Shown here: in pieces, positions 3,102 through 59,662 of the stretch
Numbering within the stretch: position 1 is the first letter of the stretch
How the letters are laid out: each line of letters starts with the position of its first letter
Assembly: GCA_900759015.1 (NCBI GenBank)
Contig: CAAEUE010000003.1
Coordinates: forward strand, 7,122-71,121
Reading direction: 5' to 3'
Origin: Clostridia bacterium
Lineage (GTDB): Bacteria; Bacillota; Clostridia; TANB77; CAG-508
Length of the DNA stretch: 64,000 nucleotides
Position numbers and translations under genes: made by a program
Notes under the pieces: generated by a model
Told to the model about the DNA's origin: nothing
The model's input: the letters and a program-made list of their open reading frames with translations, nothing else
The model's database searches: none

Positions 3102-3178
3102 GGGTCAGTAGCTCAGTTGGATAGAGCATTGGCCTTCTAAGCCAAGGGTCGGGGGTTCGAATCCCTCCTGGCTCACCA
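3102..3178 (+). tRNA. tRNA-Arg (anticodon TCT), CCA encoded
   Basis: Cloverleaf: acceptor stem GGGTCAG/CTGGCTC, D arm GCTCAGTTGGATAGAGC, anticodon loop CTTCTAA, T arm GGGGGTTCGAATCCCTC. Confidence 0.9.
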
Positions 3179-29143: not shown

Positions 29144-30397
29144 GTGGAAAATATAATAGATGAAGCAAATAGATGTTTAAATTGTAAAGTTAAACCATGT
29201 CAAAAAGCATGCCCATTAGGAAATGATATTCCAAGTTTTATAAAGCAAGTAAAAGAAAATAATTTAGAAGAAGCTTTTAAAATTTTAACTAAAACTACAG
29301 TTTTAGGTGCAATATGTGGAAGAGTGTGTCCTCATTTTAAACAATGTATGGGTAGCTGTGTAAGAGGAATTAAGTCTGAGCCAATTAATATTGGAAATTT
29401 AGAAACTTATGTTTTTGATAATGCTTTACAAGAAAACTATATAATAGAAACAACTAATAAACTAGAAGGAAAGAAAGTTGCAGTAATTGGTGGAGGTCCT
29501 TCTGGACTTACATGTGCAGCATTTTTAAGTATAAATGGTGCTAAAGTTACAATTTATGAAAAACAACCAAAACTTGGCGGAATTACAAGATATGGTATTC
29601 CAGATTTTAGATTACCAAGAGAAGTTATAGATAAAACAGTAGAGAAAATATTAAGTTTAGGAATAGAAGCAAAATGTAATCAAACTTTAGGGAAAGATTA
29701 TGAATTAGTAGATATAGAAAAGCAATATGATGCTGTATATTTAAGTTTTGGAGCAAATGTATCATCAAAAATGAATATACCAGGTGAAGATTTAGATGGC
29801 GTATATGGAGGAAATGAATTATTAGAAACAGGAATTCATCCAGATTATACAGGTAAATCTGTTGCTGTAAGTGGTGGTGGAAATGTGGCAATGGATGCTG
29901 CAAGGACTATAAAAAGATTAGGTGCTAAAAATGTATATGTAATATATAGAAGAGCAAGAGAACAAATGCCAGCAGAAGATTACGAAGTAGAAGAAGCAAT
30001 GAAAGAGGGAGTAGAGTTTTTATTTCAAAATAATATTGTTAAAATAATAGGAAATAAAAAAGTAGAAAAATTAGAATGTATAAAAACAGAGCTTGTACAA
30101 AAAGAAGGAGAAAAAAGATTAGTTCCTGTGAATATTGAAGGTTCTAACTATACATTAGATATGGATTATATTGTAATGGCTGTTGGTTCTAAAGCAAATA
30201 AGGAAGTTGTAGAAAAAACAGGATTAGAAACAACTGAATATGGAAATATAAAGGTAGATGAAAAATATATGACATCTAGAAAAGGAGTTTTTGCTGGAGG
30301 AGATTTAATAGGAACTAAAGCAACTGTTGCTTGGGCTGCACGTTCTGGAAGAAATGCTTCAGAGGAAATACAAAAATATTTATTAGGAGAAGAATAA
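29144..30397 (+). CDS. NAD(P)H-dependent FAD/Fe-S oxidoreductase, GltD/NfnB-like glutamate-synthase small-subunit family; GTG start
   Basis: Cys-rich N-terminus (CLNCKVKPCQKACP) plus FAD/NAD Rossmann motif VAVIGGGPSGLTCA. Confidence 0.65.
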   Translation: MENIIDEANRCLNCKVKPCQKACPLGNDIPSFIKQVKENNLEEAFKILTKTTVLGAICGRVCPHFKQCMGSCVRGIKSEPINIGNLETYVFDNALQENYIIETTNKLEGKKVAVIGGGPSGLTCAAFLSINGAKVTIYEKQPKLGGITRYGIPDFRLPREVIDKTVEKILSLGIEAKCNQTLGKDYELVDIEKQYDAVYLSFGANVSSKMNIPGEDLDGVYGGNELLETGIHPDYTGKSVAVSGGGNVAMDAARTIKRLGAKNVYVIYRRAREQMPAEDYEVEEAMKEGVEFLFQNNIVKIIGNKKVEKLECIKTELVQKEGEKRLVPVNIEGSNYTLDMDYIVMAVGSKANKEVVEKTGLETTEYGNIKVDEKYMTSRKGVFAGGDLIGTKATVAWAARSGRNASEEIQKYLLGEE

Positions 30398-30852
30398 TGG
30401 AAATTAGAAGAATAAAAAAAGAGGATATTCCAGAACTATTAAGCTTAAGAATAGAACAACAAAAAGAATATCACGAATGTTTAAATGAAGAAGAAAAACA
30501 TATAATAGAATATACTAAGGACTACATAAATGAAAATTTAGATAAAGATTTGTTTATGTTTGGAGTTTTTGAAAATAATGAAATGGTTGCAATATGTGGA
30601 TATAATGTGTGGAATGGTTTCCCATCACTTACTAATCATTCTGGAAAAATTGCATATCTGTGTAGTGCCTATACAAAGCAAGAGTATAGAGGACAAGGTA
30701 TTATGAAAGAACTATTAAATAAAAGCATTAATGCAATAAAAGAAGAAGGAATAACTAGAATAAAACTTAATTCAAGTAAAGAAAATGCAATTAGAATTTA
30801 TTCAAGACTTGGATTTATAAAAGATGAAACAGCAATGATACTTGATTTATAA
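30397..30852 (+). CDS. GNAT-family N-acetyltransferase
   Basis: TAATG overlap with the upstream gene; GNAT motif A region QGIMKELLN. Confidence 0.6.
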   Translation: MEIRRIKKEDIPELLSLRIEQQKEYHECLNEEEKHIIEYTKDYINENLDKDLFMFGVFENNEMVAICGYNVWNGFPSLTNHSGKIAYLCSAYTKQEYRGQGIMKELLNKSINAIKEEGITRIKLNSSKENAIRIYSRLGFIKDETAMILDL

Positions 30853-31013
30853 ATAAAGAGTTATAAATATATTTATTAAATAATGGAAATTGTAATTTAG
30901 TATTTGGGGGATATTAAAACGTTATATAATTTGTATTAACATAAGATTTATGATATAATATTAATTGTAACAAGCAGTAGATTCACCCATTAAATGGGAG
31001 AAAGGGCACAATA

Positions 31014-31247
31014 ATGAAATTAAGCCTTAAAAATCCGTCAGATTACGGACGGTATTACATGCAGGACATAGCAGCAAGCTATGGACTGGAATGTGTCGAA
31101 GAAGCAGATAGTATTTCCATTTTTTCTTCTGACAGTGGTCTTCTCGAAGCATTAAGCTATGAAATTGAAATGGAAGTTGGAACCGGAGAATTTGAAGACC
31201 GGTTGGAAAAATACTATGATGACGATGACGACGATGATGAATGGTAA
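31014..31247 (+). CDS. small acidic protein (77 aa, poly-Asp tail), paralogue A
   Basis: Own promoter, leader and terminator. Locally elevated GC. Product ends DDDDDDDEW. Confidence 0.4.
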   Translation: MKLSLKNPSDYGRYYMQDIAASYGLECVEEADSISIFSSDSGLLEALSYEIEMEVGTGEFEDRLEKYYDDDDDDDEW

Positions 31248-31406
31248 ATGCCATGTCCAAAAACAACTCCATACGGAGTTGTTTTTGGATTATATAAAGC
31301 ATTTGGGTATAGAACAATATTTATTCATGTTGACATAATGAAAAGATATGATATAATATTTACCGTAACAAGCAGTAGATTCAGCCGAAAGGCAGAAAGG
31401 GACACT

Positions 31407-31610
31407 ATGAAACTCATAGTAACAATAGTCTCAGGCGAAGCAGTGAGCTACCTGCACGAGGTTGCAACAAAAGAGGGATTAGCTATTTATAAAAATGGTA
31501 GCGATATCACTCTTACAGGGGAAGACGAACATACCCTAGAAACCTTGGAGGAGGAGATTAGGGCAAAACTTTGCGAAGGTCTGGATTATGATATCATCTA
31601 CTTTGAGTAG
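31407..31610 (+). CDS. small acidic protein (67 aa), paralogue B
   Basis: Promoter, 5' leader and AGAAAGGGNCAC-N-ATGAAA start context conserved with paralogue A. Confidence 0.4.
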   Translation: MKLIVTIVSGEAVSYLHEVATKEGLAIYKNGSDITLTGEDEHTLETLEEEIRAKLCEGLDYDIIYFE

Positions 31611-31742
31611 ATGACATAAACAGAGAAGCAACTCGCACGAGTTGCTTTTCTGTTTTTTATATACATGTACTTAAATATGTTTACTTTTTCCATTTTTTGA
31701 TATATAATGCTTGCAAATGCAAAGAATGAAGGGATGAAGGTT

Positions 31743-34160
31743 ATGTACAATTTTAAAGAGGTAGAGAAAAAATGGCAAGATAAATGGTATGCAGAAGGTA
31801 CCTTTAATGCAAAAGATGATTATTCAAAAGAAAAATGGTATGGTTTAATAGAATTCCCATATCCATCAGGACAAGGTTTACATGTTGGACATCCAAGAAG
31901 CTATACAGCACTTGATATAATAGCAAGAAAAAGAAGAATGCAAGGATATAATGTATTATTCCCAATTGGATTTGATGCATTTGGTCTTCCAGCAGAAAAC
32001 TATGCAATAAAAAATCATGTTCATCCTAAAATAACAACAGAAAAGAATATAAATCATTTTAGAGAACAATTAAAATCTATTGGTTTCTCTTTTGACTGGT
32101 CAAGAGAAGTAAACACAACAGATCCTAATTATTATAAATGGACACAATGGATTTTTATTCAATTATATAAACATGGACTAGCATATAAAGCAACTATGCC
32201 AATCAATTTCTGTACAGGTTGTAAAGTAGGTCTAGCAAATGAGGAAGTTGTAAATGGTGTTTGTGAAAGATGTGGAAGTCCAGTTGTTCAAAAAGAAAAG
32301 AGTCAATGGATGCTAAGAATTACAAAATATGCACAAAGACTAATAGATGATTTAGATGATGTAAATTTCTTAGATAAAATTAAAGCACAACAAATAAATT
32401 GGATAGGAAGAAGTGAAGGAGCAGAGGTTAATTTTAAAATAAGCGGAACAGATGATAATCTTCTTATTTACACAACTAGACCAGATACAATATTTGGTGC
32501 AACATATATGGTTGTAGCTCCAGAACATAAATTAATAGAAAAATATAAAGATAGAATTACAAATCTTGATGAAGTAGAAGAATATAAGAGAAAAGCAGCT
32601 TTAAAATCTGATTTTGAAAGAGCAGAATTAAATAAAGAAAAAACAGGTGTAGAGATAAAAGGAATAAAAGCTGTAAATCCATTAACAAATGAAGAAATAC
32701 CAATTTGGATTTCTGACTATGTATTAATAACATATGGAACAGGTGCTATTATGGCTGTTCCAGCACATGATACAAGAGATTTTGAATTTGCTAAAAAGTT
32801 TAATTTACCAATTAAACAAGTTATAAAAGATAAAAATGCAACAAGCGAATCTAAAGAGTTAGAAGAGGCTTTTACAGATGTTAACAATGGAATTGCAATA
32901 AATTCAGATTTCTTAAATGGATTAGAATCTAAAGATGCTATAAACAAAGCAATAGAATATATAGAAGAACACAAATTAGGAGAAAGAAAAGTAAATTACA
33001 AACTTCGTGATTGGGTATTTTCTAGACAACGTTATTGGGGAGAACCAATACCAATGGTATATTGCGAAAAATGCGGTTGGGTTCCAATTCCAGAAGAAGA
33101 ATTACCATTAAAATTACCAGATGTTGAAGATTATGAACCAGGAGAAAATGGGGAATCTCCACTTGCAAAACATGAAGAATGGATTAATACTACATGTCCA
33201 CATTGTGGTGGAAAAGCAAGAAGAGAAACAGATACAATGCCACAATGGGCTGGTTCATCTTGGTATTATTTAAGATACATGGATCCACATAATGATAAGG
33301 CTCTAGCTTCAAAAGAAGCATTGGAATATTGGTCACCAGTAGATTGGTATAATGGTGGTATGGAACATACTACATTACATTTACTATATTCAAGATTTTG
33401 GCATAAATTCTTATATGATATTGGTGTAGTACCAACTAAAGAACCATATGCAAAACGTACATCTCATGGAATGATACTAGGAAGCAATGGTGAAAAGATG
33501 TCTAAATCAAAAGGAAATGTAATAAATCCAGACGAAATAGTAGATGAATTTGGAGCAGACGCATTCAGAGTTTATGAAATGTTTATGGGACCTTTTGATC
33601 AAACAGCACCATGGTCTATGGAAAGTATTAGAGGATGTATGAAGTTCTTAGATAGAGTATGGAATATGCAAGACTTCTTGATAGATGGAGAAGAATATTC
33701 AGAAAAATTTGAAAAGATGATGCATAAAGCAATAAAGAAGATTTCATCAGATATAGAAGAAATGAAATTTAATACATCTGTTGCTACATTTATGACAATG
33801 GTAAATGAATTCTATAAAGAAAAACAAATTAATAAAGCTGAATTTGCAACATTTTTACAATTATTAAATCCATTTGCACCACATATGACAGAAGAATTAT
33901 ATCAAAAAATAGGTGGTAAAGAAGAGTTAGCATATAAAGCATGGCCAACATATGATGAGGCTAAAACTATAGAAGATGAAATAGAAATTCCTGTACAAAT
34001 AAAAGGAAAAGTTAGAGCTACAATTACTATTAAAAAAGACGAAGATGAAGAAGTAGTAAAACAAAAAGCTAAAGAGGCAGTAGCAAGTCAAATAGAAGGA
34101 AAGAAAATAATAAAAGAAATATATGTTAAAAATAAAATATATAATATAGTAATTGGTTAA
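31743..34160 (+). CDS. leuS: leucyl-tRNA synthetase
   Basis: HVGH and KMSKS motifs; full-length class I LeuRS; RBS-preceded ATG at 31743. Confidence 0.9.
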
Positions 34161-34283: not shown

Positions 34284-35408
34284 ATGGGGATTGAATCAAA
34301 TTTAAGAAAAGAAGGAATCAAAGTTACAGAAGAACTTGATAAAATAAAAGTTAATACTATTGCAAAGAATGTTGCTCAAAAGATTGTGGCTGCATTCCCT
34401 GAACTTGACTTTAAACTAGGTGAAGTATTTATAAAACTTTCTCAATTGAAGATGTATTATGCAGAAGTGCCAAAGGGGTTTTCAGAAGCTAATTACTTTT
34501 ACAAAAACACTTCAATTTATTTTAACCAAGAAGTCCCTATAGATAAAATAGAAAATTATGCTGTTCATGAATGTATTCATTACTTACAAGAAAGAAAAGA
34601 TAAAGCAGGATTTTTATTAAGGCTAGGCTTATGTGACTTAACACAATATAAAGTTCATGGTTTAGCACTAAATGAAGCAGCAGTACAGTATGCAACTGCT
34701 AAAGCAACAAAAGAACCAAAAGATAATGTGAAATATTATGGAATTTCTTTCGATACAATTAGTCCTACTTGCTATCCATTAATTTGTAATTTGATTGCAC
34801 AAATGGCCTATGTAACGGGGGAAAAAATTCTTTTTGATAGTACCTTTAATAGCAATAATAATTTTAAAGAAGCTTTTATAAAGAAGACTTCTGAAGAAGC
34901 ATTTTATACATTAGAAAAAAATTTTGATAAGATATTAAAGCTTGAAGAAGATTTATTAAAATTAAATAATAAAATGGAACTTTCAGATAATTTGAATTCA
35001 GGACTTAATAAAAAGAGACTTAAAATAAAGAATAATATTCAAAGTACATTTATGGAATCTCAAAATTTAATAATAACTTCTTACTTTGATACAGCTTTTG
35101 AGAAAATTACTAACTTAGAAGAAGTAGAAAATTACAGAAGATCATTATACAATTACAAAGATTTAGTTGGATATGTTGATGGAATAGATACATTTAATGA
35201 ATATTATATTAAAACTATGAATAAATTAGAGAATAAATATAATGAACTAGAAAGTGGAGCTATAGATAAAAATATAGAACAAGAGAAGGCTGGCTTACCA
35301 ATTGAAAGAAAAAATAAATTTCAAGTAATATGGCAAACAATAAAGAATTTCTTATTTAAATCAGGAGATGAATATAGAAAAGAAACTCAGCAGGAGATAA
35401 ATAAATAA
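34284..35408 (+). CDS. unknown-function protein with HExxH motif (HECIHYLQE) and C-terminal coiled-coil
   Basis: AAGGAG RBS; single HEXXH zincin-like motif. Confidence 0.45.
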   Translation: MGIESNLRKEGIKVTEELDKIKVNTIAKNVAQKIVAAFPELDFKLGEVFIKLSQLKMYYAEVPKGFSEANYFYKNTSIYFNQEVPIDKIENYAVHECIHYLQERKDKAGFLLRLGLCDLTQYKVHGLALNEAAVQYATAKATKEPKDNVKYYGISFDTISPTCYPLICNLIAQMAYVTGEKILFDSTFNSNNNFKEAFIKKTSEEAFYTLEKNFDKILKLEEDLLKLNNKMELSDNLNSGLNKKRLKIKNNIQSTFMESQNLIITSYFDTAFEKITNLEEVENYRRSLYNYKDLVGYVDGIDTFNEYYIKTMNKLENKYNELESGAIDKNIEQEKAGLPIERKNKFQVIWQTIKNFLFKSGDEYRKETQQEINK

Positions 35409-58015: not shown

Positions 58016-59662
58016 ATGATTATTCGGAAAAAATTAAGACCAAAGGAATTACAAGAGTTTGATTTGTACTTTGGAAATTTAAAGAAACTTGTGGCGAAAG
58101 ATTTTAGAGAGGAGGAATTAAGGGAGTTAAAATTTTCAGCAATGAATTTGAATCGGTTTTATAGGGTAAATCACGATGAACCAACAAGAAAAGATACTGC
58201 TATGATGCTATGGGACAGAGTGCAGCAGATATTCTATAATGAGATGAATGAATTTCAAAGAGAACGAGTTGAGGAATATGAGTTGTTAACAAAAATAGCA
58301 TTAGCCATTTCCGGAAAGACAATTCATATAAAAGATGCATACATGAAATTGGCAAGAAGTCATACGATAGATATAATTCTTGAAGCTTTTAACGACAAAA
58401 CTTTCCTTGAAAACGTATTCATAGAAGTAAAAGCAGAAGCTTATCTGCCAATAATTCGTATGATTGACCTATATGGGGTTAATGATTTTGAGATAACAAA
58501 AGGAACAGATTTGTCAAGAATAATATTGCCAGATCAAATTTTAAGTAAAATAGAAAATATAGCTGGCAGATATGCGGAACAATTAGCAAACCGCATAACT
58601 TATTACATAATTATAATACTTGATATTCTTGACAAGGGCTGGGAGAGTGTACCCTTACTTTGGGTGGTAATGGAAAATAGAATTTTTAGAGAAATGCTGT
58701 TTGACAATATTATGATGAAATTGCCTAAAGAAAGAGTAGCTTTCTGGAAGGAATTAACAATAGATAGTAGGCATTGGCTATATGATTGCGGGTTATTTAG
58801 CGCTTCTAAAATACAAGACATGGAAAAATATGTAATAGACATAAAGACTGAATGTAATGGAAAGCATTTGCAAGATGAAAATTTATATTTTAATCTTGCT
58901 CAAGCAATTATTGTACATGATGAAAATTTACTTGCAATTTATTTCACTCTAACAAAAGAGGAGAAGAATATTGTAAGGAATGAAGCCGTTGTAATGGCAC
59001 GGAAAATAAAAGAAATTTTATTGGAAGTGCTAGAAGATTTTGATGTGAATTATGTGTATAAGAATCCAGTCGCAAATGAAGATATACTAAATGTCATCAG
59101 CTTTTTTTTCCAAATGTTTTATTTTACAAGACCAATTATGGCTAATGAGATGGAAAAGAGAGGTGTAGATAAAGCGGACTGGAAGTTCATAGAGAGCTTA
59201 TTATTATTAAAAATTAAGGAAGATAAAACACCATTTATTACAGATAAAAAGGAGCAAAAACTTAAAGAAGCTGTTGAGGAAACTTTGTTTGAGATAACAA
59301 TTAATGATATAAAGCAACTAGACTCAAAAGTTAAAACAGCCAAAAATAAAATGGAAGCTCTGAACGCATTACTAGGGTATGCATCTATACAAAAAGAAAA
59401 ACATAGTTCTCCGGAATTATTAAAAGAAGTAACAGAAACTTCGATGAAGACTTATAAGGAAGGCATCAGAAGAGAAGTAATGCAATTCTCTCTCAATAAT
59501 CTTTCAACAAAAAATGCTGATTTGGATAAATCTCTAAAGGTGCTAGAGGCCTTAGATAATGGTTTTATAAGCAAAGCAGAATTTTCCAAGGCACAGCAAA
59601 AAATGGGAGTAAAAGAGAAATATATAGAAATGTTTTTTTACTTTTATTTGCCATATTTCTAA
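58016..59662 (+). CDS. unknown-function cytoplasmic protein (548 aa); locally higher GC than its neighbours
   Basis: GGAGGA RBS; no recognisable motifs; sits where minC is expected, upstream of minD. Confidence 0.5.
   Translation: MIIRKKLRPKELQEFDLYFGNLKKLVAKDFREEELRELKFSAMNLNRFYRVNHDEPTRKDTAMMLWDRVQQIFYNEMNEFQRERVEEYELLTKIALAISGKTIHIKDAYMKLARSHTIDIILEAFNDKTFLENVFIEVKAEAYLPIIRMIDLYGVNDFEITKGTDLSRIILPDQILSKIENIAGRYAEQLANRITYYIIIILDILDKGWESVPLLWVVMENRIFREMLFDNIMMKLPKERVAFWKELTIDSRHWLYDCGLFSASKIQDMEKYVIDIKTECNGKHLQDENLYFNLAQAIIVHDENLLAIYFTLTKEEKNIVRNEAVVMARKIKEILLEVLEDFDVNYVYKNPVANEDILNVISFFFQMFYFTRPIMANEMEKRGVDKADWKFIESLLLLKIKEDKTPFITDKKEQKLKEAVEETLFEITINDIKQLDSKVKTAKNKMEALNALLGYASIQKEKHSSPELLKEVTETSMKTYKEGIRREVMQFSLNNLSTKNADLDKSLKVLEALDNGFISKAEFSKAQQKMGVKEKYIEMFFYFYLPYF

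Follow-up and report, generated by a model that had tools for sequence, protein, structure and literature searches.

A strain-variable islet of small single-gene cassettes with a shared leader upstream of leuS in uncultured gut Clostridia

Results

Layout of the locus

We analyzed a 64-kb stretch of DNA, hereafter the window, from an uncultured, AT-rich gut Clostridia bacterium (GC content 0.27). Between a GNAT acetyltransferase gene and leuS lies a small islet of two tandem units, A (30902–31288) and B (31301–31661), with a period of ~399 bp. Each unit, which we call a cassette, consists of a promoter, a leader, a small open reading frame (ORF), and a terminator. The flanking context is of the housekeeping kind: ftsZ, addB, UDG, NUDIX, GNAT, leuS, and infC. 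The features of the locus are listed below.

30397–30852 (+): GNAT acetyltransferase gene (Pfam Acetyltransf_1, E 8e-16); it bounds the variable site on the left, and the mosaic zone already covers the 3′ two-thirds of the gene
30902–30950 (+): unit A upstream homology (ATTTGGG...) with a weak −35 element, TTGTAT, at 30931–30936; aligns with 31301–31348 of unit B
30951–30959 (+): unit A extended −10 element TGaTATAAT; identical or near-identical across all A-type cassettes
30967–31013 (+): unit A leader, with the 19-mer GUAACAAGCAGUAGAUUCA, a hairpin (30982–31002), and the extended Shine-Dalgarno sequence AGAAAGGG (30999–31006); covariance-model score 44 bits, E 4e-8
31014–31247 (+): ORF-A, 77 amino acids (aa), isoelectric point (pI) 4.05, net charge −18; predicted ferredoxin-like domain and disordered poly-Asp tail; homologs at 94–100% identity
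31257–31288 (+): predicted unit A terminator, hairpin CAACUCC-AUAC-GGAGUUG then UUUUU; pairing of an A run with the U run extends the stem, which has 16 bp in the minimum free energy (MFE) structure; kept in A-type cassettes
31301–31357 (+): unit B upstream homology and consensus promoter, TTGACA (31330–31335), a spacer of 16 nucleotides (nt), and TGaTATAAT (31349–31357); 12/12 with TG in the promoter scan, and aligned with unit A
31365–31406 (+): unit B leader, with the same 19-mer, a hairpin (31380–31397), and the Shine-Dalgarno sequence AGAAAGGG (31394–31401); covariance-model score 76 bits, E 1e-15
31407–31610 (+): ORF-B, 67 aa, pI 4.36, net charge −10; predicted β-α-β-β-α-β fold; homologs at 65–88% identity
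31618–31661 (+): predicted unit B intrinsic terminator, 17-bp stem around CAACUCGCACGAGUUG then a U run (terminator scan, MFE structure)
31680–31708 (+): leuS's own predicted promoter, TTTACT-17-TATAAT, leader ~28 nt; right border of the variable site
31743–34160 (+): leuS, 805 aa, start MYNFKEV, with tRNA-synt_1 and Anticodon_1 domains

The likeness between the two units is not limited to the promoter. It spans ~45 nt upstream of the −35 element, the promoter, the whole leader, and the terminator. The 19-mer copies start at 30967 and 31365, each 7 nt 3′ of TGaTATAAT. In unit B a perfect TTGACA precedes this element by 16 nt, while in unit A the −35 element is weak and the TG extension is kept. 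Both ORFs begin with ATGAAA, and both terminators are built on CAACTC..GAGTTG (31257–31288; 31618–31655, then a T run). The promoters, leaders, hairpins, ORFs, terminators, and raised GC content named in an original prediction for this DNA are all present.

A conserved leader with a hairpin at the Shine-Dalgarno sequence

The leaders are 42–47 nt long and open with the 19-mer GTAACAAGCAGTAGATTCA, which occurs exactly twice in the window (30967 and 31365, + strand); with up to three mismatches allowed, ~0.02 chance matches are expected. Downstream, RNAfold predicts a hairpin in both units: UUC-A-CCCAU-UAA-AUGGG-A-GAA in A and UUC-A-GCC-GAAA-GGC-A-GAA in B. The two share a lower stem of UUC and GAA, a 1×1 A/A internal loop, and an upper stem, and the lower-stem GAA forms the 5′ edge of the Shine-Dalgarno sequence. 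In the alignable core leaders (cassette types A, B, B′, D, and A′, and locus L093), 15 or more of the 19 positions of the 19-mer (at least 79%) are retained, and the corresponding proteins are 28–48% identical. In the most distant members (L086, L090, and L091), similarity to the 19-mer is limited to the initial GTAAC. Leader conservation is stronger than ORF conservation in the protein family to which ORF-A and ORF-B belong, termed family 1 below.

The original prediction had read the differences between the two hairpins as compensatory changes under selection on RNA structure. MAFFT left the hairpins out of register, and a covariance-model alignment was used instead. Seven B-type leaders served to build the model. 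In 16 loci it recovered all family-1 cassettes, with no other match; A-type leaders, absent from model building, matched it at 44–46 bits. Across 13 distinct leaders, all 75 cells of the six hairpin pairs hold standard pairs, compared with 43–71% when the pairing is slid. Two of the six pairs change on both sides, from G-C to C-G in three distinct sequences and from C-G to A-U in one. Of 500 shuffles, one gives a covariation score as high as that observed. The hairpins of the distant members are unrelated in sequence (CUUAAGA-GAUA-UCUUAAG, GUUGAGG-GAUA-CCUUAAC, and CUGAGA-GGUAUA-UCUCAG) and occupy the same place, partly covering the Shine-Dalgarno sequence. The pair counts and the distant hairpins support structural constraint on the hairpin, as had been predicted.

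The leader corresponds to no Rfam family at E ≤ 10 over 29500–33000 or at the gathering threshold window-wide. No antisense or complementary partner of the 19-mer is present in the window, and inspection by eye, the only comparison made, gave no match to a cre-, CodY-, or Spo0A-type operator. A degenerate leader pattern run against genome contigs returned 76 loci, of which five were true (L014, L017, L031, L052, and L083) and the rest chance. The leader always precedes family-1 ORFs, which rules it out as a portable module for other ORF families. As a separate observation, the start codon of unit B lies in a predicted 6-bp hairpin, CUAUGA-AAC-UCAUAG (31404–31418), which also occurs in the B-type cassettes of L001 and not in D-type cassettes.

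Two acidic proteins of one orphan family

ORF-A and ORF-B have no BLASTP similarity to each other, and a gapless alignment of their first 58 residues gives 27–28% identity. Alignments of the B-type and A-type proteins match by hhalign with 97.9% probability (E 4e-13). The two are therefore homologous, as the original prediction of a tandem duplication implied, and the duplication is ancient rather than recent. AlphaFold2 predicts one shared fold. The ORF-B model has a mean predicted local distance difference test (pLDDT) score of 90.5 and β-α-β-β-α-β topology by DSSP; the ORF-A model (pLDDT 78.7) has the same fold, followed by an acidic tail (residues 68–77) predicted to be disordered (pLDDT <50). 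Family-1 proteins are 65–84 aa long with a pI of 4.0–5.3; most carry a net charge of −10 to −19, and A-type members have disordered Asp/Tyr-rich tails.

The ORFs are real protein-coding genes under purifying selection. Pairwise Nei-Gojobori ratios of nonsynonymous to synonymous substitution rates (dN/dS) among homologs are 0.17–0.41, and 0.24–0.37 for ORF-B. With a dN of 0.098, the cassettes exceed the flanking gltD-like and leuS genes (0.011) about ninefold. Public gene calls lengthen ORF-B to 120 aa (P0017 and P0019; start at 31248) or 90 aa (P0012 and P0013), and these calls run through the unit A terminator and the unit B promoter and leader. The credible start is the ATG at 31407, which is preceded by the Shine-Dalgarno sequence and gives 67 aa. 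The poly-Asp tract of ORF-A (31212–31241, GAT/GAC repeats) varies among homologs: DDDDDDDEW in the window, DDDDEW in L001–L004 and L083, DDCDDDDEW in L005, and DDGDDDDEW in P0003. Such differences point to slippage in the repeats or to a disordered tail under relaxed constraint.

Could such proteins be precursors of ribosomally synthesized and post-translationally modified peptides (RiPPs), with a folded leader domain and a variable Tyr/Asp-rich C-terminal core like that of YxD-type cyclophane peptides? The C-termini are variable and rich in Y-x-D and F-E-D motifs, the copies are tandem and divergent, and there is one weak NCBIfam match, to RiPP_phane_YxD (NF041709; E 0.057). However, that match scores 13.4 bits against a cutoff of 55, comes from one member, and covers residues 20–31 rather than the tail; it is spurious. 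No radical-SAM or other maturase gene is found among the neighbors, and the C-terminal YxIY of the B-type proteins is predicted to form strand β4 of the globular fold. We consider a RiPP precursor highly improbable.

Family 1 comprises 25 clusters at 90% identity among 5.8 billion; when 1.84 billion representatives were searched exhaustively with a HMMER profile, eight reached E ≤ 1e-3. The original prediction would have been undermined had the ORFs been conserved nowhere else; homologs occur in several species of metagenome-assembled genomes (MAGs). The carriers are uncultured Clostridia MAGs and contigs of ~27–31% GC, mostly from gut metagenomes by their record names. Searches of Pfam, PHROGs, PADLOC, NCBIfam, and PDB-sequence profiles gave no credible match to the family (best PDB E 0.42). 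Foldseek against PDB and viral models returned generic ferredoxin-like matches only (CutA, PstA/PII-like, ACT, RRM, and designed proteins; best E 0.019). In topology and size the models resemble PII-like/PstA, CutA, ACT, and RRM domains (TM score 0.5–0.7, probability up to 1.0), but the E values are ~0.02 or worse, sequence identity is 10–24%, a T-loop and ligand-binding motifs are lacking, and the acidity is extreme. Judged from the models, the ferredoxin-like matches reflect a common fold and not family membership. Neither the protein family nor the leader motif has been described before.

Foreign-like composition

Local GC content in the islet is 0.34–0.43, compared with 0.27 for the window. 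ORF-A and ORF-B have GC contents of 0.40 and 0.42, where 0.32 and 0.30 are expected under background codon usage, and their amino-acid content therefore does not explain the raised GC. At third codon positions (GC3) the values are 0.34 for ORF-A and 0.42 for ORF-B, against 0.13 ± 0.03 (maximum 0.28) in 34 long window ORFs. The maximum belongs to a 548-aa ORF at 58016–59662, whose GC3 is about twice the background. The foreign-like choice extends to both C- and G-ending codons, as the following frequencies illustrate.

Codon: ORF-A and ORF-B together; background
CTG: 20%; 1%
CGG: 2 of 3 Arg codons; 1%
ACC: 43%; 3%
GTC: 33%; 2%
AGC: 42%; 8%
TTA: 20%; 70%

GC3 is 0.25–0.45 in every family member examined, including members of 28% identity and those at another chromosomal locus, while the flanks have 0.13–0.17. 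Because it is family-wide and persistent, the raised GC3 is not simply the mark of one recent transfer. One possible cause is continued circulation of the cassettes out of a higher-GC reservoir that is unsampled; the other is selection on synonymous positions, as might favor mRNA stability. The view of the islet as GC-rich and acquired thus stands as far as its composition goes, which is foreign beyond any amino-acid effect; recent acquisition is too simple an account.

Strain variability and recombination

The cassettes of all relatives of this lineage are placed between the same GNAT gene and leuS. Their number ranges from one to four, and they come from two orphan families, the second of which is described below. 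The configurations are as follows.

Locus: cassettes between the GNAT gene and leuS
Window, L001–L004, L083: A + B
L005: A + B + C + D
L006–L009, L097: D only
L017: 120-aa gene + B′ (L094 also has B′; the 120-aa gene is unconfirmed there)
L014: A′ + 113-aa gene + B′
L095: C + 120-aa gene + B′
L096: C + B″

The gene content changes between strains whose leuS genes are close. Nucleotide identity of leuS to the window is 95–99% where ungapped comparison held, the D-only loci not being comparable, and 97.5–99% for L017, L094, L095, and L096. Two loci are recombinants with a crossover inside the leader: in L052 the A promoter and leader are joined to ORF-B, and in L096 the D promoter and leader are joined to a B′-type ORF. 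Identity between the window and L001 is mosaic, at ~95% in gltD, ~72% in the 3′ part of GNAT, 97–98% in unit A, 80–88% in unit B, and ~97% in leuS. Since the 3′ part of GNAT has diverged while gltD and leuS remain at ~95–97%, the zone of recombination or mosaicism begins inside GNAT. The divergent stretch of GNAT (30500–30800) is ~72% identical to L001, with a dS of 0.73 and a dN of 0.18 for the gene. For unit A, dS is 0.023, compared with ~0.21 in the flanks, which suggests recent spread of the unit A cassette among diverged strains.

Distant family-1 members (P0028–P0030) are located at another housekeeping junction, between gmk and uvrA. Their architecture is the same: a TTGACA-17-TGnTATAAT promoter, a leader that opens with GTAAC and has a GNRA-capped hairpin next to the Shine-Dalgarno sequence or overlapping it, and a terminator of the CAACT..AGTTG type. 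In L005 (2340–2392) we also observe a 17-bp unit, AAAAAAACTTAGAGCAT, three times in tandem between the cassette B terminator and the cassette C promoter.

A second orphan family in the same islet

Family 2 consists of the C gene and the 113- and 120-aa genes. Its members are helical proteins of 103–120 aa, of which the 113- and 120-aa ones are basic (pI 9.7). They are found in L005 (2385–2820), L017 (4245–4730, minus strand), L014 (729–1200, minus strand), L095, and L096; the window has no family-2 gene. The C gene (104 aa) and the 120-aa gene match by BLASTP at E 2e-5, with 29% identity over 58 aa, and the leaders of their cassettes are ~93% identical. This leader carries GTAACAA and a palindromic hairpin abutting AGGAGG (AUAGUUAAUUAACUAU). 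GTAACAA has only 12 occurrences on both strands of the 64-kb window. The L014 hairpin, AAAGUUA..UAACUUU, looks like a compensatory change.

In relatives, the basic family-2 genes directly precede acidic family-1 genes, an arrangement that would suit a toxin-antitoxin-like module in which the acidic protein neutralizes the basic one. A type I module, with a toxin ORF and an antisense RNA in tandem repeats, would fit the tandem, strain-variable copies with conserved 5′ untranslated regions (UTRs), as at ldr/ibs-type loci. Yet the family-1 proteins are soluble, acidic, and 65–84 aa long, not hydrophobic toxins. Family 2 is absent from the window, and in some strains the islet holds nothing but one family-1 gene. 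Promoters and terminators are present for every gene separately, and no convincing antisense promoter is seen, the only candidate being a weak minus-strand site at 31617–31588 (9/12). A toxin-antitoxin module of either kind is unlikely.

Relation of the islet to leuS

The leuS ATG (31743) lies ~82 nt after the unit B terminator. The original prediction held that the islet had replaced a T-box leader of leuS, which would have rewired the regulation of that gene. Among the uses of T-box control in Firmicutes, that of leuS is one of the most widespread (PMC2494555), and the ~82 nt upstream of this leuS contain no T-box. Against replacement, cmscan detects neither a T-box (RF00230) nor a remnant of one at E ≤ 10 over 29500–33000, or at the gathering threshold in the whole window. 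Among the islet-carrying relatives, which this comparison covers, the short leuS promoter region is conserved behind every configuration of one to four cassettes. T-box use is also phylogenetically patchy (PMC2494555), so its lack at this leuS needs no special explanation. The replacement is unsupported rather than disproved, and we regard it as very unlikely.

Two further observations were made in the window. At the gathering threshold, Rfam identifies only one tRNA (3102–3175) in the 64 kb. It identifies no cis-regulatory RNA, for instance in front of leuS or infC (35612), and such a lack is unusual in a Firmicute. Directly 3′ of leuS, a conserved 374-aa protein is encoded (34284–35408); it is present in all relatives (369–374 aa) and contains an HExxH motif (HECIH), with no Pfam hit.

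We also considered that the functional products are RNAs, either structured small RNAs or cis elements that tune leuS through promoter occlusion or read-through from two strong promoters, with the ORFs incidental or secondary. The leader is more conserved than the ORFs, the units are always directly upstream of leuS in this lineage, and the folding z-scores of the whole units are −5.7 and −6.6. These scores, however, derive mostly from the terminators; the coding sequences alone give −1.8 and −2.8, too weak a signal for a structured RNA within them. The purifying selection and the confidently predicted fold of the ORFs argue against this possibility, as do the family members between gmk and uvrA rather than at leuS, the variation from one to four cassettes with an unchanged leuS promoter, and the strong predicted terminators. 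It is unlikely that RNAs are the main products.

Discussion

The islet is probably a strain-variable accessory region of horizontally acquired, autonomous (‘moron-like’) single-gene cassettes that share a cis-regulatory leader. It would have been inserted into a housekeeping stretch of the chromosome between the GNAT gene and leuS. Each cassette would be strongly transcribed from a near-consensus sigma-A promoter with an extended −10 element, starting at the G of GTAAC. The leader may be a shared cis-regulatory module in which a conserved, unpaired 5′ segment of ~15 nt precedes a hairpin of variable sequence. Most likely, the hairpin and the 8-nt complement to the 3′ end of 16S rRNA set mRNA stability and initiation rate for high expression, and the unpaired segment is probably a common recognition site for one trans-acting regulator at the DNA or RNA level. 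The promoter, leader, and terminator modules could double as homology arms, such that cassettes are exchanged, duplicated, and deleted by homologous recombination. This reshuffling would yield the one to four cassettes per strain, drawn from two orphan families.

Several points weigh against this interpretation. The transcription start sites and terminators are sequence predictions. The family-wide GC3 could reflect selection on mRNA instead of a foreign origin. Relatives were found neither in phages and plasmids by tblastn nor in IMG/VR by a protein-pattern scan, and the leader 19-mer is absent from viral contigs. The hairpin pairs were counted on an alignment fitted to the model and among related sequences, which leaves essentially one independent flip (G-C to C-G) in the core family, in addition to changes in stem length and loop; in L093 the hairpin is degenerate. 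The hairpin begins ~15 nt from the predicted 5′ end, and this is not the ideal position for a 5′ stabilizer in Bacillus subtilis mRNA decay. Finally, the role in conflict or immunity considered next is drawn by analogy, and no toxin, secretion system, recombinase, or phage gene was found among the neighbors.

What the proteins do can be suggested tentatively. They may work in the cytoplasm as accessory factors that bind or inhibit other proteins, in the manner of immunity proteins, anti-toxins, or decoys, during strain-level conflict or competition. This possibility is raised by their small size, globular predicted fold, high acidity, fast evolution, tandem diversification, strain specificity, and foreign composition. 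A more speculative proposal is that the GUAAC leader and hairpin form the recognition element of a dedicated regulator, protein or RNA, that co-controls strain-variable conflict proteins from both orphan families. It is prompted by the leaders of both families, which are far more conserved than the ORFs and which both carry GUAACAA and a hairpin against the ribosome-binding site. If it were true, the islet would be a recombinase-free cassette array driven by homologous recombination, a functional analogue of the acquired interbacterial defense arrays of Bacteroidales made from unrelated parts.

Type I toxin-antitoxin repeats such as ldr and ibs are tandem small-ORF loci with conserved 5′ UTRs. 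The cassettes likewise occur in tandem and in varying number, and every unit combines a promoter of its own and a conserved, structured leader with a small ORF, but the encoded proteins are acidic, predicted to be globular, and 65–84 aa long rather than short and hydrophobic, and an antisense RNA is not evident. Hairpins that stabilize the 5′ UTR or lie close to the Shine-Dalgarno sequence are known from Firmicutes mRNAs, as in the STAB-SD, ermC, and aprE leaders. Our leaders are likewise short, have a hairpin, and carry a very strong, extended Shine-Dalgarno sequence that complements the 3′ end of 16S rRNA; they differ in that the hairpin lies away from the extreme 5′ end, behind the conserved 19-mer, and in having no Rfam match.

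Phage morons are independent transcription units inserted between genes (PMC3594210). Like morons, the cassettes have their own predicted promoter, ORF, and factor-independent terminator, lie between unrelated genes, and differ in composition from their surroundings. Unlike morons, they are found outside prophages, between housekeeping flanks and with no relatives in phages, plasmids, or IMG/VR, and they form tandem paralog arrays with a shared leader. A second comparison is with the orphan immunity gene arrays and acquired interbacterial defense clusters of gut bacteria (bioRxiv 10.1101/471110). Common to both are strain variability, small, divergent, and fast-evolving genes, a gut bacterial host, horizontal acquisition, and repeated intergenic non-coding sequences. 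In contrast to those arrays, the cassettes have no known immunity homology in Pfam, PADLOC, or NCBIfam. Neither a toxin nor a secretion system nor a recombinase adjoins them, and they reside in a Gram-positive Clostridia lineage. Integron gene cassettes were rejected as an identity, as each unit has its own promoter and no integrase is nearby; attC was not specifically searched for. T-box leaders, type I toxin loci, and RiPP precursors were likewise rejected, for want of a T-box, of a short hydrophobic toxin peptide, and of an above-cutoff score with an adjacent maturase, respectively.

A small, horizontally acquired, hypervariable accessory islet is a familiar kind of element; the family and the leader are undescribed. 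Genes for small proteins of this kind are systematically mis-annotated, as in the calling of ORF-B as 120 aa through a terminator and a promoter. Non-coding modules that are far better conserved than the ORFs they serve, with two unrelated families adjoining, offer a simple signature for finding similar cassette arrays. If the favored reading is correct, the locus would represent a new small-protein family, a new 5′ leader motif, and a compact hot spot of strain-level variation in gene content in an abundant, uncultured group of gut Clostridia. Comparable islets often encode determinants of strain competition or phage resistance.

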